From Deltaproteobacteria bacterium (GTDB lineage Bacteria; Desulfobacterota; Binatia; UBA9968; JAJDTQ01), in assembly GCA_028821115.1 (NCBI GenBank), contig JAPPHF010000041.1, positions 1 through 50,878 on the forward strand: a stretch of DNA of 50,878 bases, given 5' to 3'. A model generated the notes under the pieces. That model saw only the letters and a program-made list of their open reading frames with translations. It did not search any database and was not told where the DNA came from. Positions 2,412 to 47,158 of this stretch are shown in pieces; the stretch's first letter is position 1; each line of letters starts with the position of its first letter. The position numbers and the translations under genes were made by a program.

Positions 2412-4160
2412 ATGACTCTCGAGCTCAACCAATCGGCGCGCACGGTGGTGTTCCAGCGGCGGGTCAAGTCCCTCACCCACGAGATGGCCCAGGCGCTGTA
2501 CCGGAGCAGCCGCTCGCCGCTGATCAACAACGGCGATTTCGCGCTGGGATTCCTCGATGCACGGGGCCGGATGCTGGAGCAGGACGAGCACCTGCCGCTG
2601 ATGGCCTTTTCGTTGTATCCGGGCTGCGGCTACCTGATGGACTTCTTCGAAGGCGACATCCACGACGGGGACGTCTTCATCCACAACGACGTCTGGTGCG
2701 CCAACCTGCAGCACGCGGACGTCGGGTTCTACAAGCCAGTGTTCGCGGGCGGCGAACTGGTGGCGTGGACCGCCTGCCGGGGCCACTGGGCGGACATCGG
2801 CGGCGCGGTCAAGGGGACATGCAATCCCGAGGCGGTGGAAGTCCACCAGGAAGCGTTGCGGATCCCGCCGGTCAAGCTGTGGGAGAAGGGGCGGCTCCGG
2901 CGCGACGTGTGGGAGCTGATCTTCGCCAATGTGCGGCTGCGGGAGATCGTCGAGGCGGACGCCCAGGCGCAGCTGGGGAGTTGCGCCGTGGGGGAGAGGC
3001 GGCTGCGCGTTTTGATGGAAACGGAGGGCGCCGAAGCCTTTGCTGCCAACATCGAGCGCCTCTACGACATGACCGAGCGGCGGGTGCGGGCCGAAATCGC
3101 GGCGCTGCCCGACGGCGAGTATTTCGGCGAGAGCACCATCTACCAGGATGAGCCGGGCAACCCCTCGACCTCCCGGATTGCCGTCAAAGTGGTGATCCGT
3201 GGGGACAGCATCGCCTTCGACTTCACGGGCACGGACCCCCAGACCCCGACCTTCACCAACGCTTCCCTGACCTCCACCACGGCGGCGACCCTCACCACGC
3301 TGCTCTACCTGCTGAGCCCCGAGGTGCTCCACAACCACGGCCTGGTACGCTCCGTGGACATCCACGCGCCCGAGGGATCGATCCTGAACGCCTGCTATCC
3401 CGCGGCCACGTTCATGGGCAACAAGCTGTGTCAGCACACGGGCGAGGCCATCATGCTGGCGCTGCGGGAGGCGCTGCCGGATCGGGTCACCGCCCCCTGG
3501 GGTCGGCGCCTCTCCTACCGCATGACCGGCAAGGACCCGCGCAACGGGCGGGGCTTTCACGACATCTTCTTCCTCACCTACGAGGGCGGCGGCGCCACCC
3601 ACGGGGTCGACGGCTACAACCAGCCCGGACTCATGGGCGGCGGCAACGTACTGGCGCAGGACTACGAGACCTTCGAGGTGCAGAATCCGGTGCAACTCAT
3701 CGAGCATGAGTACGTCACCGACTCGGCCGGGCCGGGCCGCTGGCGCGGCGGCCTGGGGACCCGCACCCGGGTGCGCTACTACGGCGAGGAGACCGGCGGC
3801 TCCACTCACGGCGACGGCACCATGGAGCCGTCGCCGGGGGTGCTGGGAGGCGGAGCGGGCACGCTGAACAGCGTGGAGTTCCAGTTCCCGGGCGGCGCCC
3901 GCCGAAACGCCCACGCCATGGAAATCATCCCGGACATCCCGCCGGGTACGGTCTCGGTTCACCACGGCGGGGGCGGAGGCGGCTACGGACCGCCGGAGGA
4001 ACGCGACCTCGAGCGGGTGGACGAGGACCTGCGCAACGGGTTCATCTCCGCGAAGGCGGCCGTCGAGGTCTACGGCGCGGTGCTGACTCCGGACGGCTCC
4101 GCGGTGGATTTCGAGGCTTCGCGGAAGCGGCGAAAAGCCCCTACTTCCCGGTCTTCGTGA
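2412..4160 (+). CDS. Hydantoinase B/oxoprolinase family subunit
   Basis: Motifs SPLINNGDF, GHWADIGG, EVHQEALRIPPVKL, GPGRWRGGLG, GGGGGYGPP; 28 nt downstream of the A subunit. Confidence 0.93.
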   Translation: MTLELNQSARTVVFQRRVKSLTHEMAQALYRSSRSPLINNGDFALGFLDARGRMLEQDEHLPLMAFSLYPGCGYLMDFFEGDIHDGDVFIHNDVWCANLQHADVGFYKPVFAGGELVAWTACRGHWADIGGAVKGTCNPEAVEVHQEALRIPPVKLWEKGRLRRDVWELIFANVRLREIVEADAQAQLGSCAVGERRLRVLMETEGAEAFAANIERLYDMTERRVRAEIAALPDGEYFGESTIYQDEPGNPSTSRIAVKVVIRGDSIAFDFTGTDPQTPTFTNASLTSTTAATLTTLLYLLSPEVLHNHGLVRSVDIHAPEGSILNACYPAATFMGNKLCQHTGEAIMLALREALPDRVTAPWGRRLSYRMTGKDPRNGRGFHDIFFLTYEGGGATHGVDGYNQPGLMGGGNVLAQDYETFEVQNPVQLIEHEYVTDSAGPGRWRGGLGTRTRVRYYGEETGGSTHGDGTMEPSPGVLGGGAGTLNSVEFQFPGGARRNAHAMEIIPDIPPGTVSVHHGGGGGGYGPPEERDLERVDEDLRNGFISAKAAVEVYGAVLTPDGSAVDFEASRKRRKAPTSRSS

Positions 4161-6801: not shown

Positions 6802-8091
6802 CTACGGGCTGAACTCCGAACCCCGGCCCATCGCCCGGGCCAGCCGCGCCTCCGCCACCTTGTGGTCGTAGATGGACCGTATGTGGTCCGTCTGGGCCCT
6901 GGTGTTGATGACCTGGGCTTCGGTGATCTCGATGATCGAGCCCACCCCCACCTGGTAACGGCCGTTGGCCAGATCGAGGTTTTCCTTGGCCGACTTCGTT
7001 TGCGCCTCGTTGGCTCTGATCCGCTCCCCCGCCTCCACGAGATTCAGAAAAGCCTCCTCCACCTCCAGCGCGATGCGTTGCTGCTGCTCTTCCAGTTGCG
7101 CCTTGATGACCGCGTGGTCGCGGACGGCTCTTTCGATCTCGGGCTTGAGGGTAAAGCCCGGGAACAGGGGGACTTCCAGGGTCAGCGTCGAGCTGATGAT
7201 GTCCTGGTCGTTGTGCAGGCGCCGGCCGTATTGTCCGTTGAAGCGGAGCCTCGGCATGCGGCCGCGCTTGACCACGTCGATGGCCTCCTGCTGGGCCTTG
7301 AGGCGGGACTGGAACTCCATCAGCTCCGTGCGCGATTCGAAGGCGGCCTTGACCGCGTCCTCCAGCGACAGGGCGGACGGCCGGACGTTGACGTCGGAAG
7401 CCACTCGACGCTCCGGGAACCGGCTCACGCCCATGGCGCTTTTGAGCCGCGCCCAGGCGATCCTGACGCCGTTCTGTGCCGCGATGAGTCCCGCCTTGGC
7501 CGCGAAGAGGCTTGCCTCGGCGCGGGCGACGTCGATCTTGGGGCGCGTGCCCACATCGAAGAACCCCTGGGCCTGGCGCACCAGGGTTTCGCGGTCCTTG
7601 ACCGTATCCTGCTCCACCCGCACCAGCGCCTCGGCCCGGAGGTAGTTGAAGAAGGCCCGCCGCACCGCGATCACCACGTCCTCCGCCGACGTCTTCTCCA
7701 GGAAACGCCGGGCTTCCAGCGTGCCCTCTTCCCGACGGATGTTGCCCTCGCGGCGGCCGAAGTCGCTCACCAGCCATTGCACCTGGCCGCTGGTACTGAA
7801 GAGGTTCTTGTCCGCGTTGGGGTTCTCCGTAACCGGCTTGTTCTCGTATGAGCCGCGGACCCCGGCGGTAGGATACCAGGCGGCCTTGGTCCTCGTCACC
7901 ACGGCCTCCTGCACCTTGACCCGTTCCTTGGCGGCGCGGATTCCCGGATGATTCTCCAGGGCGATGCGCTCGGCCTGCTGCAGCGTCAGCATTTCAGGGT
8001 CCGACTGTTGAGCAACGGCGGATTGGAACATCCCGAGCAACACGAATGCCCCGATCCCCAATACCGCGGCCCCATTCTTGCGGTATCGCAT
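6802..8091 (-). CDS. TolC family outer membrane efflux protein
   Basis: Signal peptide; LTLQQAERIALENHP, two OEP repeats, ENLDLANGRYQVGVGSIIEITEAQ. Start at ATG 8091 behind AGGAGG. Confidence 0.92.
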   Translation of the reverse strand: MRYRKNGAAVLGIGAFVLLGMFQSAVAQQSDPEMLTLQQAERIALENHPGIRAAKERVKVQEAVVTRTKAAWYPTAGVRGSYENKPVTENPNADKNLFSTSGQVQWLVSDFGRREGNIRREEGTLEARRFLEKTSAEDVVIAVRRAFFNYLRAEALVRVEQDTVKDRETLVRQAQGFFDVGTRPKIDVARAEASLFAAKAGLIAAQNGVRIAWARLKSAMGVSRFPERRVASDVNVRPSALSLEDAVKAAFESRTELMEFQSRLKAQQEAIDVVKRGRMPRLRFNGQYGRRLHNDQDIISSTLTLEVPLFPGFTLKPEIERAVRDHAVIKAQLEEQQQRIALEVEEAFLNLVEAGERIRANEAQTKSAKENLDLANGRYQVGVGSIIEITEAQVINTRAQTDHIRSIYDHKVAEARLARAMGRGSEFSP

Positions 8092-8130
8092 AACGACCTC
8101 CTTGTGACGCGTATCCTCGCGCATGTGTTC

Positions 8131-8316
8131 CTAGTGTGGTGTCTGGTTAATTCGCAGCATAATCTGCGGGTCTTTTTCGCCGTCGGCTGCGTTGCTCTTC
8201 CTCGCGTGGTGCCCGCCCTGGGGCGACCTACGGTCGCCCCCACTCGTCATCGCGCCTTGCCGACGACAAAAAATCCTCCGCATATTACGCTGCGAATTAA
8301 CCAGACACCATACTAG
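8131..8316. mobile_element. 186-bp CTAG-bounded MITE/REPIN-like palindromic element, copy 1
   Basis: Begins and ends with CTAG; arms tggtgtctggttaattcgcagc / gctgcgaattaaccagacacca; internal hairpin ggggcgacctacggtcgcccc; inverted homolog at 11383-11568; non-coding. Confidence 0.85.
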
Positions 8317-8431
8317 CCTTTGCTTGCAAACCGGTTCTATATCAGCGCCCACCCGTTCAACAAGGGGAAACGCGTGTTTGGAAACCCTCCCGGTGGCGCG
8401 CTTGAATGCTTCCGGCCGGAGGGAATAAAGT

Positions 8432-8520
8432 GCAAACACATAGAGCAAAACACACAGCAAAACACATGCCACGGCGCGCTCCGATTCCTTGCGGCGGTCG
8501 CGCGGCGCCCCGTGGCATGT
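8432..8520. promoter_or_regulatory. Candidate operator/leader: three GCAAA(A)CACA direct repeats followed by an 11-bp perfect inverted repeat
   Basis: gcaaacaca 8432-8440, gcaaaacaca 8445-8454 and 8457-8466; acatgccacgg 8464-8474 pairs with ccgtggcatgt 8510-8520. Located in the divergent TolC/SDR intergenic region. Confidence 0.4.
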
Positions 8521-8553
8521 CTATTGGATTCATTAGACGATCGGGAGTTCTCC

Positions 8554-9330
8554 TTGGATTCACTGACGGGCAAGGTCGCGCTGGTCACGGGCGCGGGGAG
8601 CGGCATCGGCCGGGCGGTGTCGCTGGCGCTGGCGCGGGAAGGCTGCCGCGTGGTCCTGGCGGGTCGGCGGGAGGATCGCCTGGCGCGGGTCGCCGGGGAG
8701 GTACGCGGGCAAGGGGGCAAGGCCTTCCCGATGGCCTGCGACGTGGGCTCCCGGACGGCCGTGGACGCGCTGGCGAAGAGCGCCGGCCGGGTGGGGGTGG
8801 TGCAGATCCTGGTCAACAGCGCGGGCATCGCCCCCGCCGCGAGTTTCCTGGAGATGGAGGACGGGCTGCTGGAAGAGGTGTTGCGCGTGAACTTCATGGG
8901 CACGTGCTACTGTTGCAAGCGGTTTCTGGGGCCGATGATCGGCGCGGGCTGGGGCCGTGTCCTCAATATCGCGTCCACCACGGCCAAGACCGGGTATTCG
9001 CACACCGCCGCTTACACCGCCTCGAAGCACGCCGTCCTCGGGCTCACGAAGGTGCTGGCGCTGGAAACCGCGCGAAAGGGCGTGACGGTCAATGCCATCT
9101 GCCCCGGATACGTGGACACGGAGCTGACACGCGAGAACGCCCGTCTCATGGCCGCCAGAGTCGGCGCCACGGCGGCGGAGGTTCTGGAACGGTTCGCCCG
9201 CACCTCGCCGCAACGGCGGCTCGTGGCGCCGGAGGAGGTGGCGGAATTGGCGGTGCTGCTGGCCGGACCCGCGGGCGATTCCGTTACCGGACAGGGCATC
9301 AACCTTGACGGCGGCGCGTTCATGGGCTGA
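8554..9330 (+). CDS. SDR family NAD(P)-dependent oxidoreductase (3-hydroxyacyl-CoA/3-hydroxybutyrate dehydrogenase-like)
   Basis: TGAGSGIG, NSAGI, YTASKH (YxxxK), NAICPGYVDT. TTG start at 8554 behind GGGAG; the 8320 start in the ORF track is an upstream extension. Confidence 0.9.
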   Translation: MDSLTGKVALVTGAGSGIGRAVSLALAREGCRVVLAGRREDRLARVAGEVRGQGGKAFPMACDVGSRTAVDALAKSAGRVGVVQILVNSAGIAPAASFLEMEDGLLEEVLRVNFMGTCYCCKRFLGPMIGAGWGRVLNIASTTAKTGYSHTAAYTASKHAVLGLTKVLALETARKGVTVNAICPGYVDTELTRENARLMAARVGATAAEVLERFARTSPQRRLVAPEEVAELAVLLAGPAGDSVTGQGINLDGGAFMG

Positions 9331-9397
9331 CACAAGGCGGGACATCGTTCAGGTTTCAAACCCTTTCGCGCCCGTGCGGCGAAGACAGGACGGTAGA

Positions 9398-10192
9398 ATG
9401 GCATACGAGAGCTTCGACTACACCGTGGACGGCGGCATCGCCACCATCCGCCTCAACAATCCCGGGCAGCTCAACGCCCTGACCTTCCGCACCTACGAGG
9501 AGTTGGCGGAGCTGACCGGCTCGGTGGCGGCGGACAACCGGGTCCACGTGCTGGTGATCACCGGCGCGGGCAAGGGTTTCTGCTCCGGCGGCAGCGTCGA
9601 CGACATCATCGGCGAGCTGCTGAAGATGGACGGCGCCGGGTTGTACCGGTTCACGCGCCTTACCTGCGATGTCGTGCGCAACATGCGCGCGCTGGAGAAA
9701 CCCATCGTCGCCGCGGTGAACGGGGTGGCGGCGGGCGCGGGCGCCGTCCTGGCGCTGGCGAGCGATCTGCGGGTCCTGTCGGAGCGGGCGAGAATGGCTT
9801 TCCTGTTCGTCAAGGTGGGCCTGGCGGGATCGGACATGGGCGCCATCCATCTGCTGCCGCGCATCGTCGGCACGGGGCGCGCCATGGAGCTGCTGTCCCT
9901 GGGAGACACAATCGACGCCGCCGAAGCCTACAGGATCGGCCTGGCCAACAGGGTGGTGCCCCACGAGGAGCTGATGGCCGAGGCGGTGAAACTGGCGCGC
10001 CGGCTGCGGGACGGGCCGCGCTTCGCCATCGGGGTCACCAAGAAGCTGCTGGATCTGGAAGCGGGAATGGACCTGGACGCGGCCCTGGAGATGGAGGCCA
10101 TGACCCAGGCCCATTGCATGCAGACCGCGGACTTCCACGAAGGCTTTCGCGCCTTCATGGAAAAGGAACCCGCCCGCTTCAACCGGGGTTAG
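9398..10192 (+). CDS. Enoyl-CoA hydratase/isomerase family protein
   Basis: LNALTF, FCSGGSVDDIIGEL, KPIVAAVNGVAAGAG, DFHEGFRAFMEK; start at ATG 9398. Confidence 0.92.
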   Translation: MAYESFDYTVDGGIATIRLNNPGQLNALTFRTYEELAELTGSVAADNRVHVLVITGAGKGFCSGGSVDDIIGELLKMDGAGLYRFTRLTCDVVRNMRALEKPIVAAVNGVAAGAGAVLALASDLRVLSERARMAFLFVKVGLAGSDMGAIHLLPRIVGTGRAMELLSLGDTIDAAEAYRIGLANRVVPHEELMAEAVKLARRLRDGPRFAIGVTKKLLDLEAGMDLDAALEMEAMTQAHCMQTADFHEGFRAFMEKEPARFNRG

Positions 10193-10216
10193 GCATTGTT
10201 CGAGGCGGGGAGTTCG

Positions 10217-11386
10217 GTGACGCGAGCAGTGGACAGGGAATTCGGGTTGCCTGCGCCGCAGCTTCGGCTGCGGCGGGAGGTTTACGGCTGGGCGGAGGCC
10301 GAGTTGGGCGGGATCGATGCGGCCGCCGGCGACGAGGCCGCGCGGGCGGCGTTCGGGAAGCTCGCCGAGCACGGCGTTTTCCGCTTTGTGGCGCCGCGCG
10401 GGCTCGGCGGCGCGCGCGGCCGCGTGCAGGTTCGTGACCTGTGCGTCATCCGCGAGACATTGGCAGGTGTGTCGCCGTTGGCGGATACCTTGTTCGCGGT
10501 CCAGGCCCTCGCCGCCCATCCGCTGGTGCTGGCGGGAAACCCGGGCCAGCAGCGCGCGTATCTTCCGGCCCTGGCCTCGGGCCGGGCCATGGGAGCGTTC
10601 GCCCTGACGGAGCCGGAGGCCGGATCGGACCCGGCCGCCCTGAGGCTGCGGGCGCGCAAGCGCGGCGGCGCCTACGTGCTCGACGGCGTCAAGAGCCTCA
10701 TTTCCAACGCCGGCCTGGCGGATCTCTACATGGTGTTCGGCAGCACCCATCCGGCGCGCAAGGGAAACGGCATCGGCGCCTTCGTGGTGGAGGCGTCGGC
10801 TCCGGGCGTGGTGGTCAGGGAGCGGCTGGCGCTGGTCTCGCCTCATCCCATCGGAACCGTGGGTTTCGAAGGCTGCCGCGTTCCCGAAAGCCAACTCCTG
10901 GGGGATGCCAGAGGTGGACTGGGCGTCGCATTGGCGACCCTGGAAGCGCTCCGATGCAGCGTTGGGGCGGCGGCGGTAGGCATGGCGGGCCGCGCCCTGG
11001 CGGAGGCGATTCGCCACGCGCGACGGCGGCGCCAGTTCGGACGTACCCTGGACCGCTTCCAGGCCATCCGGTTCAAGATCGCGGAGATGTCCACGGAGCT
11101 CGAGGCGGCGCGCCTGCTGGTCTACCGGGCCGCCGAGGCTCACGATCGGGGCGAGGCCGGTATGGTGCACAAGTCCTCCATGGCCAAGCTGTTCGCCACC
11201 GAGGCGGCCCAGCGCATCGTCGATCAGGCCCTGCAGATACTCGGGGGCCGCGGGCTCGTGTCGGGCAGCGTCACCGAGCGGCTCTACCGTGACGTCCGAG
11301 CGCTGCGCATCTACGAGGGAACCTCGGAGATCCAGAAGCTCATCATTGCGCGCGAGGTGCTTGGTTCGTGGAGAGAAAACAGCTAG
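10217..11386 (+). CDS. Acyl-CoA dehydrogenase family protein
   Basis: FALTEPEAGSD, GVKSLISNA, RRQFGR, ERLYRDVRALRIYEGTSEIQK. Start uncertain (10196/10217). Its TAG stop is part of the left CTAG of the adjacent repeat. Confidence 0.92.
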   Translation: MTRAVDREFGLPAPQLRLRREVYGWAEAELGGIDAAAGDEAARAAFGKLAEHGVFRFVAPRGLGGARGRVQVRDLCVIRETLAGVSPLADTLFAVQALAAHPLVLAGNPGQQRAYLPALASGRAMGAFALTEPEAGSDPAALRLRARKRGGAYVLDGVKSLISNAGLADLYMVFGSTHPARKGNGIGAFVVEASAPGVVVRERLALVSPHPIGTVGFEGCRVPESQLLGDARGGLGVALATLEALRCSVGAAAVGMAGRALAEAIRHARRRRQFGRTLDRFQAIRFKIAEMSTELEAARLLVYRAAEAHDRGEAGMVHKSSMAKLFATEAAQRIVDQALQILGGRGLVSGSVTERLYRDVRALRIYEGTSEIQKLIIAREVLGSWRENS

Positions 11387-11568
11387 TGTCCTGTCCGGTC
11401 AATTCGCATGATAAGATGTGGAGGATTTTTCGTTGTCGGCAAGGCGCGATGACGAGTGGGGGCGACCGTAGGTCGCCCCAGGGCGGGCACCACGCGAGGA
11501 AGAGCAACGCAGCCGACGGCGAAAAAGACCCACAGATTATTATGCGAATTGACCGGACAGGACACTAG
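11383..11568. mobile_element. 186-bp CTAG-bounded MITE/REPIN-like palindromic element, copy 2 (inverted relative to copy 1)
   Basis: Same length as copy 1. Bases 11435-11531 are identical to the reverse complement of the copy-1 core. Arms tgtcctgtccggtcaattcgcat / atgcgaattgaccggacaggaca are self-complementary. Confidence 0.85.
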
Positions 11569-11595
11569 GGTAGCGGGTTTCCCACCGGAGGACCC

Positions 11596-12756
11596 ATGGA
11601 TTTCGATCTCTCGGATGAGTTGCTCGCGGTCAGGGAGCTGGGCCGTGACTTCGCGGAGAAGGAGATTGCGCCGACGGCGGCGGCCGACGACCGCGATCAC
11701 TACTTTCGCCGGGAAACCTTCGAGAAGATGGGGCGGTTGGGCTTCTTCGGCTGCGTCGTCCCCGAAGCCTACGGCGGCACGGGTCTGGGGTATCTGGCCA
11801 TGGTGCTGCTGACGGAAGAGATCGCGCGGGTGCACAGCTCGGTCCGGGTGCATGTCAACACGCAGCTCGCGCCCGCGGTGACGCTGGCGCGCTTCGGCTC
11901 CGAGGCGCAGCGGCGCCGCTGGATCCCGGGGCTCGTGGATGCGTCGTACATCGGCTGCTTCGCCATCACCGAGCCCGACGCCGGCTCCGACGTGGTTTCG
12001 ATGTCCACCCGGGCCGAACGGACCGGCGGGGGCTACGTCCTCAAGGGCACCAAGACCTGGATTTCCAACGCGCCCATCGCCGACGTGGCGCTGGTCTACG
12101 CGGTGACGGACCGGGAGGCCGGGCATCGCGGCCTGTCGGCCTTCATGGTGGAGCTGGGTCAGGCCGGCGTTCGCCGCGGCACCCTCGACAAGATGGGGGC
12201 GCTGGCCTCGCCCACGGGCACCCTGGAATTCGACGACGTGGCGGTGCCCGCCGATCACCTGGTCGGAGCCGAGGGCCAGGGCTTCTCCATGTGCATGTGG
12301 CAGCTCAACCAGACCCGCCTGAGCTGCGCGGCTGGCGCCCTCGGCGTGGCCCGGGCGGCCCGGGAAGCGGCGGTGGCCTACGCCAACCAGCGGCAACAGT
12401 TCGGCCAGCAGATCGGGCGTTTTCAGATGATCCAGGACAGCTTGGCGCAGGTGGTCGTCGAAGAAGAGGCGGCACGTCTGCTGGTGTACCGGGCGGCCTC
12501 CCTGGCCGACAGCGGCCAGCCCAACAACCTGGAGGTCTCGATGGCCAAATATGCCGCCGCCGAGGCCGCGGCACACGCCGCCGACAGCGCCTTCAAGATT
12601 CTGGGAGCCTACGGATATTCCACCGAGTTTCCCGTGGAGCGCTACCTCCGGGACGCGAAATCCTATCAGATTGTCGAGGGCTCCTCGAACATCCACAAGC
12701 TGATCATCGCCCAGGATGCGTTGGGCTACCGGAAGGCGAACCGGCAGCGGGAGTAG
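11596..12756 (+). CDS. Acyl-CoA dehydrogenase, glutaryl-CoA dehydrogenase (non-decarboxylating)-like
   Basis: FAITEPDAGSDV, KTWISNA, ASPTG, LNQTRLS, NNLEVSMAKYAA, ILGAYGYSTE, YQIVEGSSNI and the C-terminal RKANR resemble the Desulfococcus-type Acd as recalled. Confidence 0.8.
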   Translation: MDFDLSDELLAVRELGRDFAEKEIAPTAAADDRDHYFRRETFEKMGRLGFFGCVVPEAYGGTGLGYLAMVLLTEEIARVHSSVRVHVNTQLAPAVTLARFGSEAQRRRWIPGLVDASYIGCFAITEPDAGSDVVSMSTRAERTGGGYVLKGTKTWISNAPIADVALVYAVTDREAGHRGLSAFMVELGQAGVRRGTLDKMGALASPTGTLEFDDVAVPADHLVGAEGQGFSMCMWQLNQTRLSCAAGALGVARAAREAAVAYANQRQQFGQQIGRFQMIQDSLAQVVVEEEAARLLVYRAASLADSGQPNNLEVSMAKYAAAEAAAHAADSAFKILGAYGYSTEFPVERYLRDAKSYQIVEGSSNIHKLIIAQDALGYRKANRQRE

Positions 12757-45189: not shown

Positions 45190-46164
45190 ATGAAACTGGG
45201 ACTCAGCCCCCTGCAGGGCACCGACAGCTTCGAGGAGACCATCCGCGAATGCGAGCGCGCGGAGGCGGCGGGGTTCGATTCGGTCTGGCTCGGCGAGCAT
45301 CACAACAACCCCGTCCTCTATCCGGCGCCGCTGCTGGGGCTGGCCGCCATCGCCGCCCGCACCAGCCGGGTCTCGCTGGGAACCGGCGTCCTGCTTCTGC
45401 CTCTTTACCATCCCATGTGCGTGGCCGAGGAAGGCGCGATGGTGGACATGATCTCGGGCGGACGCCTCATCCTGGGGCTGGGGGCCGGATACGCGCCCGA
45501 GGAGTTCGCCGCCTTCGGCCTCTCCGTGAAGCAGCGCGGCAGCCGGCTGGAAGAAGGCGCCGCCCTGGTCCGCCGGCTCTGGACCGAAACCGACGTCACC
45601 CATCACGGCCGGTACTTTCACGTGGAAGGCGCCACGGTGGGACCGAGGCCGGTGCAGCAGCCGTCGCCGCCCATCTGGTTCGGCGCCTGGACCGCTCCCG
45701 CCATCGAACGCGCGGCGCGGTTGGGCGACGCCTGGCTGGCGGGGCCGTCAGCGGCGCTGTCCGAGCTGTCGTCGTGCGTGGCCGCGTACCGTCAGCGGCG
45801 CGCCGAGCTGGGCAAGGAAGCGGGCACCATCGCGGCGTTCCGCTACGTCTTCGTGGCCGGCACCACGGAGGAGGCGCTGGAGATCGCCGGCGGGTCCTTC
45901 ATCCGGGCTTTCGAGGACATGTACTTCCGCTGGCCCCACCCGGTCGTCAAGCGGCCTGCCGGCGATCTCACCATCGAGCGGCTGGCGGAGAACCGCATCA
46001 TCCTGGGCGACCCCGACACTTGCGTCCGGGAGATCGCGCGCTTCCGGCAGGAAATCGGCCTCGATCACCTGGTCTGCCGCTTCTCCGTCCCGGGCATCTC
46101 CCGCGAGGCTTCCATGGCATCCCTCGACCTCTTCGCCCGGGAGGTCATGCCGGCCCTCGGGTGA
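45190..46164 (+). CDS. LLM class flavin-dependent oxidoreductase
   Basis: AEAAGFDSVWLGEHH, LGTGVLLLPLYHP, SGGRLILGLGAGY, PPIWFGA, RAARLGDAW. Confidence 0.92.
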   Translation: MKLGLSPLQGTDSFEETIRECERAEAAGFDSVWLGEHHNNPVLYPAPLLGLAAIAARTSRVSLGTGVLLLPLYHPMCVAEEGAMVDMISGGRLILGLGAGYAPEEFAAFGLSVKQRGSRLEEGAALVRRLWTETDVTHHGRYFHVEGATVGPRPVQQPSPPIWFGAWTAPAIERAARLGDAWLAGPSAALSELSSCVAAYRQRRAELGKEAGTIAAFRYVFVAGTTEEALEIAGGSFIRAFEDMYFRWPHPVVKRPAGDLTIERLAENRIILGDPDTCVREIARFRQEIGLDHLVCRFSVPGISREASMASLDLFAREVMPALG

Positions 46165-47158
46165 GGGCCGGCTGAACGGCGTCGAGGGCGGAGTCGAGTT
46201 CCCGCCACCAGTTGGTCATCACCTCGCTCCGGGCCATTCGCTCCCGCACCCTGCGCCGCTCGTGGCTGACGGCGGTATAGTCCAGGCCGCCCAGGTGCGC
46301 GCCGATGGCCTGCTGGGTCAGGCCGCCGTGGCGATAGAGCAACTCCATCAGGATGCCGCGCTGGTCGCGACACCGGCCCCGCTTACGCCGGAGCCGTTCG
46401 GGCGCAAGATTGAAGTACCTTGCCGCCTCGGCCGTGATCCGGGCGGGTTCCAACCGCGGCGTCGGAGGCGGCAACGTCGCCTGTCCGGCACTCCCGGTCA
46501 TGGCGGCCCACTGCTGCCTGGAACTTGCCCAGAAGCGGTCGTCGCCCAGGATGACCTGCCCGCGCAGCTCCTTCCAGGGGCTCGACACTCCCTGCTCCAG
46601 GGCGTCCTGCACGAACCGGCCATACCGGCGCCGGGAGTTACCGACTCGCGACAGCACCGCATCGTAGTGGACCCACGATTCCCGGCGGCGCGCCGAGGCG
46701 TACCCGCCGAGGCTGCTCCAGGGGTATTGCCAGAGTTGCCGGACCTGCTCGGGCACGATGCCTCTCCGCAGGCGGGGGGTGCGCACCGGGTTGATGTGGA
46801 CATGCCGGCTGACCGCCAGCAGCCATGCGTCCGGCTGCAACAGGATGGCCTTGAAGCGGCCCTGGTAGAGATGGCCGGTGCGGCGGTGCCGCCGGTTGAA
46901 GTAGGACGTGTAGGCCACGTTGAAGTGGCGCATGAATTCGGAGAGATTGGCCTTCGGCGTCTCCGCGACGAGGTGGAAGTGGTTGTTCATCAGCACGTAG
47001 CAATGAAGCTCCACCTCGTAGATCTCCAGCGACTTCCGCAAACGTTCGAGGAAGGCATGGCGGTCGTCGTCGTCCCGGAAGACGTTCCGCCGGTCGTTGC
47101 CCCGGCAGGTCACGTGGTAGTGGGCGTGCGGGTACTCGATTCGTAACGGTCGTGCCAT
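46145..47158 (-). mobile_element. REP-associated tyrosine (Y1/HUH) transposase with C-terminal HTH, probably catalytically impaired
   Basis: MARPLRIEY, YHVTCRGN, YVLMNNHFHL (HUH), GHLYQGRFKA, YPWSS. The usual RYIHLNP motif reads RHVHINP. C-terminal LTQQAIGAHLGGLDYTAVSH resembles a DnaA/TrpR-type HTH. Confidence 0.88.

Follow-up and report, generated by a model that had tools for sequence, protein, structure and literature searches.

Mirrored arm differences in a palindromic repeat of sponge-associated Candidatus Binatia: a probable IS630-type MITE with a strand-biased fold

How can two copies of a repeat come to differ almost only by changes that are matched on both of its paired arms? The question is raised by a 50,878-nucleotide (nt) stretch of a Binatia metagenome-assembled genome (MAG) (contig JAPPHF010000041.1 of assembly GCA_028821115.1; hereafter the window), which carries two inverted copies of a 186-nt palindrome at positions 8131-8316 (minus strand) and 11383-11568 (plus strand). 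A sequence-only reading had proposed that the pair might represent an undescribed repeat class, moved as structured RNA or single-stranded DNA (ssDNA). Our analysis indicates instead that the element is very probably a non-autonomous miniature inverted-repeat transposable element (MITE) of the IS630/Tc1-mariner kind, found in one genus of uncultured sponge-associated Candidatus Binatia, and as such a new lineage-specific family of an ordinary, known kind, the IS630-type MITEs. The mirrored differences probably stem mainly from copies carrying the terminal inverted repeats (TIRs) of different insertion sequence (IS) ends or lineages.

Two copies and the family they belong to

Both window copies are bounded by CTAG at each end. 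Copy 1, with what we call type B arms (CTAGTaTGGTGTCTGGTTAATTCG...), has the start of a minus-strand outer-membrane efflux (OEP) gene on one side and a plus-strand operon on the other, and copy 2, whose arms are of type A (CTAGTGTCCTGTCCGGTCAATTCG...), has an acyl-CoA dehydrogenase gene on either side. Aligned in the same orientation, the copies differ at 19 positions, and their longest identical run spans 97 nt (element positions 53-149). Fourteen of these differences form seven mirrored pairs, at positions 8, 9, 14, 18, 27, 28 and 37 and their partners; six replace one Watson-Crick pair with another, and position 28 changes from C:G to G:T. The five one-sided changes include positions 6, 29, 49 and 52, of which positions 6 (A·C) and 29 (G·T) exchange a Watson-Crick pair for a transition mismatch. 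Direct comparison confirmed the tally of the sequence-only reading (186 nt, a 97-nt identical core and seven mirrored pairs), and the two further differences it had noted are those at positions 49 and 52.

In the predicted fold of each copy, a 32-base-pair (bp) outer stem is followed by an internal loop with tandem G·A/A·G and then by an inner stem, topped by a branched head containing GGGGCGACCGTAGGTCGCCCC, in agreement with the stem and head described earlier. In copy 2 the 32-nt outer left arm (11383-11414) is complementary to the outer right arm (11537-11568), and the left half of the inner stem (TTTTTCGTTGTCGGC, 11426-11440) pairs with its right half (GCCGACGGCGAAAAA, 11512-11526) through a helix that includes conserved U·G wobbles. 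The head hairpin occupies 11459-11479 in copy 2 and 8220-8240 on the minus strand in copy 1. The predicted free energy is -122 kcal/mol for one strand and -109 kcal/mol for the other, and in all five copies tested the strand designated forward folds about 9-13 kcal/mol more stably than its complement.

The source MAG (labelled G000, with the window as contig C18) comprises 2.2 Mb in 195 contigs at 66% G+C. Searching it with nhmmer yielded about 81 non-overlapping matches to the element. Of these, 15 are full-length and internal to contigs, and about 50 fall at contig ends; the repeat evidently breaks the assembly, a point of practical weight for annotation. The element is present in 21 of 25 genomes of the Binatia genus, with tens to hundreds of first-look candidates in each, and the 16 genomes examined from the order's other genera lack it. 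Named records containing the core are MAGs labelled Candidatus Binatia or bearing older deltaproteobacterial labels, and the sequencing runs that contain the window stretch are mostly sponge metagenomes. In the literature on Binatota transposable elements and on IS630 MITEs with compensatory changes we found nothing on this family.

We described the anatomy of the family from 144 non-redundant copies, which range from 165 to 189 nt and fall into a commoner 165-nt form and a form of 186-189 nt that carries an additional 21-nt head hairpin. Conservation has its edge exactly at the outer CTAG...CTAG. Positions 1-13 (CTAGTGTCCTGTC) are conserved across the family, whereas positions 14-31, the covarying segment that matches IS630 TIRs, vary strongly among copies. 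A single position there can show up to four Watson-Crick pair types, and the segment of each copy nevertheless pairs with its own partner arm. Conservation resumes from position 32 inward and reaches near-invariance over a centre of about 70 nt. At least six arm types are thus combined with one nearly invariant core of about 70-100 nt and inner stem, and this core stays nearly the same across arm types and species. The alignment therefore upholds the earlier claim that the self-complementarity of the arms is kept while their sequence is not fixed, and the claim of a mobile, high-copy, non-coding element is likewise sustained by the copy counts, by the empty sites described below and by the lack of a conserved reading frame.

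The last of these points deserves comment, as an ATG within GCGCGATGACG opens a frame of 32 or 39 codons that reaches the terminal TAG and is open in 118 of 141 copies, and the 21-nt head difference leaves it in frame, as a 32- or 39-residue peptide would demand. We reject a coding role as wholly improbable: head variants shift the frame in distant species of the genus (L004, L006 and L007), several copies contain internal stops, the variation in residues is explained by complementarity to the left arm, and high G+C makes open frames cheap.

Insertion sequences with matching ends and duplicated TA targets

Candidates for the autonomous partner sharing the element's CTAGTGT ends, for which the sequence-only reading had called, could be found. 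The source MAG contains a 1195-bp IS (contig C114:843-2037) that starts with CTAGTGTCCTGTCT..., ends with ...GACAGGACACTAG, is flanked by CTAG, has TIRs of about 39 bp and encodes an intact protein of 360 amino acids with HTH_23/28/32 and DDE_3 domains. Relatives contribute ten further IS copies, 1.13-1.48 kb long, with CTAGTGT... termini as in the MITE. (The C114 IS is assembled alone, on a contig of 2.3 kb.) Subterminally, the IS TIRs match MITE arm types at 23-28 of 30 positions, compared to a mean of 18.9 of 30 for random pairs of MITEs. One insertion sequence, the G022 'b' IS, relates directly to the two window copies: its left end resembles the type A arms of copy 2, its right end agrees at 28 of 30 positions with the type B arms of copy 1, and the two ends differ from each other, being identical at 23 of 30. 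Other IS lineages match arm types C, D, E, F and G. These matches to the TIRs of distinct IS630 lineages are the observation that had been named beforehand as telling against an undescribed repeat class, and that claim is refuted. The MITE profile itself gave no nhmmer match in twelve Y1 and DDE_3 loci, and further IS loci were compared by terminal motif only.

The IS630/Tc1-mariner group is defined by TA duplication, imperfect inverted repeats, a transposase with helix-turn-helix (HTH) and DDE domains, and cut-and-paste movement of double-stranded DNA (PMC2170065). By analogy with this established mechanism, we propose that the element moves in trans: DDE transposases with two N-terminal HTH motifs, supplied by the IS630-family ISs of about 1.13-1.48 kb, would bind the TIRs of the MITE, excise it and paste it into a TA, preferably one within CTAG, with duplication of the TA. 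The first 25-30 nt or so of each arm type would correspond to the TIRs of a different IS630 lineage, and the window copies would belong to two subfamilies, with copy 2 (type A) bearing the left end and copy 1 (type B) the right end of one IS lineage. With one TIR variant at both ends of each MITE, differences between subfamilies would then appear mirrored. Fold-back of one strand may be constrained on top of this, as suggested by arms that are more symmetric than IS ends and by a covarying inner stem that tolerates U·G and not C·A.

Insertion sites in related genomes are consistent with this proposal. The site of copy 2 is empty in genome G019, where a contiguous 604-nt match has 97% identical flanks, and in G007; the empty site reads ...CAGGTAGGGTAGC... 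in both, and the source MAG reads CAG-CTAG, then the element, then CTAG-GGTAGC. Conversely, many sites that are filled in relatives are empty in the source MAG. The clean filled/empty cases turn TTAG into TTAG...CTAG, or CTAG into CTAG...CTAG, and therefore fit duplication of TA around an element that runs from G to C, which places the two TA duplicates of copy 2 at 11384-11385 and 11566-11567. An allele that skips 182 nt, from 11383 to 11566, is present on a metatranscriptome contig. Among the 144 copies, the left TA is preceded by C in 94%, and the right TA is followed by G in 75% and by A in 19%.

Insertion in this manner also affects the ends of genes. In 53 of 144 copies (37%) an adjacent gene terminates at the TAG of a terminal CTAG, because an element that begins with G after TA rebuilds the stop when it inserts into a TAG stop codon. 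Copy 2 also supplies a stop codon. In G019 and G007 the upstream acyl-CoA dehydrogenase gene ends 21 nt earlier, at its own TAG; in the window that codon is TCG, and the reading frame is extended by seven codons (11362-11386) to a TAG at 11384-11386, formed by the left duplicated TA and the first base of the element. About a third of neighbouring genes thus owe their stop codons to the element, which matters for their annotation.

We could compare eight pairs of orthologous sites between genomes, of which six hold elements with clearly different arms, one of them flipped, and two hold elements with the same arms. OZ220712.1 has, at the site of copy 1, an oppositely oriented MITE whose arms are of type C. 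In the same genome copy 2 has an ortholog, within 95% identical flanks, that shares its arms (one position differing in each) and carries a 165-nt head form, and heads have therefore been exchanged, or gained and lost, in place. Compensatory evolution or hypermutation of the arms in situ was considered and rejected on the six sites with clearly different arms; such differences point to subfamilies and to repeated use of rare CTAG/TA targets in short intergenic regions. At two loci an IS and a MITE stand back to back and share a single CTAG (L136, G003:C1 ~2288243-2289630; L140, G013:C1 ~165893-167263), which suggests that element ends create new targets and that tandem or nested arrays build up in this way.

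The block of about 3 kb between the inverted window copies (8131-11568) holds an open reading frame (ORF) without assignment and genes for an enoyl-CoA hydratase and an acyl-CoA dehydrogenase. We saw no sign of movement as a composite, since relatives without the copy 2 insertion keep the gene order and OZ220712.1 has a different MITE at the copy 1 site.

Among described elements, IS630 of Shigella sonnei and ISY100 share the TA duplication, the preference for CTAG, imperfect TIRs and a DDE transposase with two N-terminal HTH motifs (PMC2170065); these are autonomous, whereas the window copies have no transposase and are presumed passengers. RUP, a 107-bp pneumococcal MITE, provides the precedent for tying a MITE to an IS630 element (IS630-Spn1) by TIR similarity and TA target (PMC2229807). 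Like the Binatia element it is a short non-coding palindrome of about 100 copies with TIRs resembling those of a co-resident IS630-family IS, and it inserts at TA; the Binatia element is longer (165-189 nt), with 58-nt arms, one core joined to at least six TIR sets for different IS lineages, and strand-biased pairing. The likeness concerns TIR and TA criteria, and no sequence kinship is expected. Correia elements of Neisseria (CREE/NEMIS, ~100-155 bp) are likewise TA-flanked, high-copy repeats beside genes, with TIR subtypes around a conserved core, and their transcripts fold into hairpins (PMC2229807, PMC2649163). Correia differs in that its core holds an IHF site and that promoter and RNase III effects are documented for it; the two reviews name no transposase for it, whereas cognate ISs were found for the Binatia element. 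With its single core, its several TIR sets and cognate IS630 lineages in complete genomes, the Binatia family is well suited to studying how MITEs track diverging transposases.

Pairing of the arms and a bias towards one strand

Do matching TIRs account for all of the pairing? We computed pairing statistics from 95 distinct copies. Standard pairs fill 95.7% of cells, compared to 80.3% in shuffles and 37-50% when partners are slid, and changes on both sides occur at 33 of 61 pairs; the mirrored changes first seen in two copies are thus real and beyond chance. The left arm and the reverse-complemented right arm of MITEs agree at a mean of 28.4 of 30 positions, whereas the ends of IS630 ISs, which are less symmetric, agree at 15-28 of 30. 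Pairing and covariation also run on through the inner stem (positions 44-58), well inward of the outer 30-36 nt on which the comparison with IS ends was made. This helix is 98.1% paired. Its pair 49-141 is CG in 37 copies, UA in 29, UG in 25, GC in three and another combination in one; C·A is absent there, and about 12 cases of it would be expected if the two sides were independent. Pair 47-143 is UA in 85 copies and CG in 10, and pair 51-139 is U·G in 78 of 95.

The mismatches themselves favour one strand. After clustering of related copies we counted 82 G·U-type and 22 A·C-type mismatch events on the forward strand (p=3e-9), a strand bias that supports the G-U wobbles noted by the sequence-only reading. 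Were the constraint that of a cruciform, or otherwise purely double-stranded, both types would be treated alike, and we therefore infer that fold-back of one specific strand is also under constraint, with RNA and ssDNA both possible. In the outer arms, covariation could also follow from having to match TIRs, an explanation that covers neither the inner stem nor the G·U bias. Neither the excess of symmetry over IS ends nor the 82:22 ratio is predicted by the textbook model of cut-and-paste on double-stranded DNA.

A mechanical origin of the mirrored changes deserves consideration at this point. Intramolecular template switching, as the quasi-palindrome is replicated or repaired, could copy one arm onto the other in the absence of selection and thereby convert an A/B hybrid into A/A or B/B, as the earlier suggestion of arm-to-arm copy correction implied. 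The parent-like IS is itself an A/B hybrid whose ends are identical at only 23 of 30 positions, MITE types A and B look like its homo-armed versions with the same inner part, a single A/B arm hybrid exists among 143 copies, and recombination among copies does occur, as in the copy 2 ortholog with the same arms and another head. Copy correction would, on the other hand, erase the U·G wobbles, the G·A/A·G loop and a bulge at positions 40-43, asymmetries that every arm type and nearly every copy retain, and it predicts G·T and A·C intermediates in equal numbers. We consider it unlikely as the source of the mirrored changes; it could have acted on the outer arms, and the conserved inner-stem asymmetries fall outside its reach.

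The same strand bias raises the alternative that the element, or its conserved core and fold, acts first of all as a structured RNA transcribed from one strand, such as an RNase III substrate, an mRNA stabiliser, a terminator or a small-RNA precursor, for which IS630-type ends are only a vehicle. The wobble counts and the two diagnostic inner-stem pairs fit such a role, as do the tandem G·A/A·G loop, which forms on one strand only, the energy difference between strands and a core that hardly varies across arm types and species. Transcripts of Correia/NEMIS and ERIC elements, which fold and are processed, set a precedent (PMC2229807, PMC2649163), and contigs of a sponge metatranscriptome cover the Binatia element. 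Yet G·T wobbles and tandem G·A pairs are also stable in ssDNA, and the bias is therefore no specific sign of RNA. Within window positions 7500-12500 no Rfam 15 family matched at E≤1, and no sigma-70-like promoter was found in or beside the two window copies; weak terminator-like motifs, a hairpin followed by a T-run, occur inside the arms of copy 1 only and are not robust. The metatranscriptome signal, from unstranded Logan contigs, reaches at most about 80 times that of the flanks, below the DNA copy-number excess of about 290 times in a DNA-type run.

Orientation was no more informative. Relative to flanking genes the copies are arranged nearly at random (41 co-oriented, 29 opposed, 22 convergent and 21 divergent), those that supply a stop codon divide 28 to 25, and orientation relative to GC skew in OZ220712.1, a single chromosome, gives 19 against 13, which is not significant. 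As none of these tests reached significance, they do not separate RNA from ssDNA. Overall, a primary role as structured RNA appears doubtful to us.

In sponge metatranscriptome run X23, the summed contig depth over window 11411-11551 is 540-800 in the 3' half, 6-10 times that of the 5' half (84), and a DNA-type run is even over both halves of the element (3566-3968). The excess could hint at a processed or internally started RNA, with the proviso that contig depth is unreliable and unstranded.

Returning to the IS630-type MITE, what TIR matching leaves over is the extra symmetry of the arms, the covariation of the inner stem, the wobble bias towards one strand and the invariant core. One possibility, which we advance only tentatively, is that the near-invariant, asymmetric core and the inner stem form a functional single-strand module, RNA or ssDNA, that persists by re-acquiring the TIRs of whichever IS630 lineage is active. 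Such a module would need one strand to fold back, for example to join the ends of a 165-nt element for the IS630 transposase or to yield a processed RNA, and the element would then be a modular, TIR-swapping hyperparasite of insertion sequences. The family thus bears on whether very short Tc1/IS630-type elements depend on one-strand fold-back. It also mimics structured RNAs in covariation tests, and recognising it should prevent false calls of new non-coding RNA or mobile-element classes in Binatia and similar MAGs.

Several points weigh against assigning the element to IS630-type MITEs. The base 5' of the left TA differs from that of the empty site at several pairs (in copy 2, G when empty and C when filled), and a DDE reaction that is symmetric throughout would not lead one to expect the asymmetry between left and right flanks. 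Five copy-rich genomes (G007, G008, G009, G017 and G019), two of which are assembled in 2-4 contigs, yielded no DDE_3 transposase; copies there must be relics, or have been moved by something that was not found. The near-invariance of the core across arm types and species has no explanation from TIR recognition. Finally, the strand-biased wobble, on which the case for a constrained fold-back leans, could in part reflect mutational bias rather than selection.

The nested hairpin and a RAYT-like gene

Hairpin repeats in bacteria can also be moved as ssDNA by HUH (Y1) transposases, and the sequence-only reading had pointed to an HUH-type or RNA-guided unit. The window does contain a candidate enzyme, a Y1_Tnp/RAYT-like gene at 46145-47158 (minus strand) with an added C-terminal DnaA_C-like HTH. 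It scores 47 bits with Pfam Y1_Tnp and 64.8 bits with NCBIfam REP_Tyr_transpos, under the cut-off of 80, and phmmer gave no match among PDB sequences. The gene is single-copy in each genome, with a frame of 337-360 amino acids conserved across the genus. Its distribution follows that of the element, as it occurs in 20 of 21 element-bearing genomes and in one of four without the element, and the hairpin design and strand bias of the element would suit ssDNA transposition of a REPIN- or PATE-like unit.

Other evidence largely refutes movement by this enzyme, and we regard it as very improbable. At seven loci (six in relatives, searched at E≤10; in the window, within 2-3 kb), about 1.5 kb on each side of the gene is free of element copies. 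The protein retains the HUH motif HFH, and its tyrosine motif reads SRHVHINP in the source genome and G019, and SRYVHMNP in G017; in the source genome His thus replaces the catalytic Tyr. REPINs and REP sequences with their RAYTs are likewise hairpin repeats whose halves change together, and the window has both a RAYT-like gene and a nested, GTAG-headed REP-like hairpin. REPIN/RAYT systems, however, leave no target duplication and have GTAG-type, hairpin-defined ends, whereas the Binatia MITE duplicates TA, ends in the TIRs of DDE ISs and does not sit beside the RAYT-like gene, which lacks the catalytic Tyr. PATEs of the IS200/IS605 type insert 3' of a fixed tetra- or pentanucleotide without duplication and with a lagging-strand bias; here TA is duplicated, and the counts relative to GC skew (19 and 13) show no significant bias. 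An HUH-type or RNA-guided unit is accordingly not supported.

The RAYT-like gene has a more plausible partner in the head hairpin of the longer form, a nested REP-like palindrome. This hairpin, GGGCGACC-N3-GGTCGCCC, also stands alone at about seven other places in the source MAG (C63:26660, C65:2 and 46, C116:6253, C134:14829, C144:15559 and C185:8863), directly behind GTAG in four of them and behind GTAA in one. Judged from these sequences, the 186-nt form thus appears to be a MITE with a nested REP-like unit, and it may be this small GTAG-headed REP family, rather than the MITE, that serves as the substrate of the RAYT-like gene.

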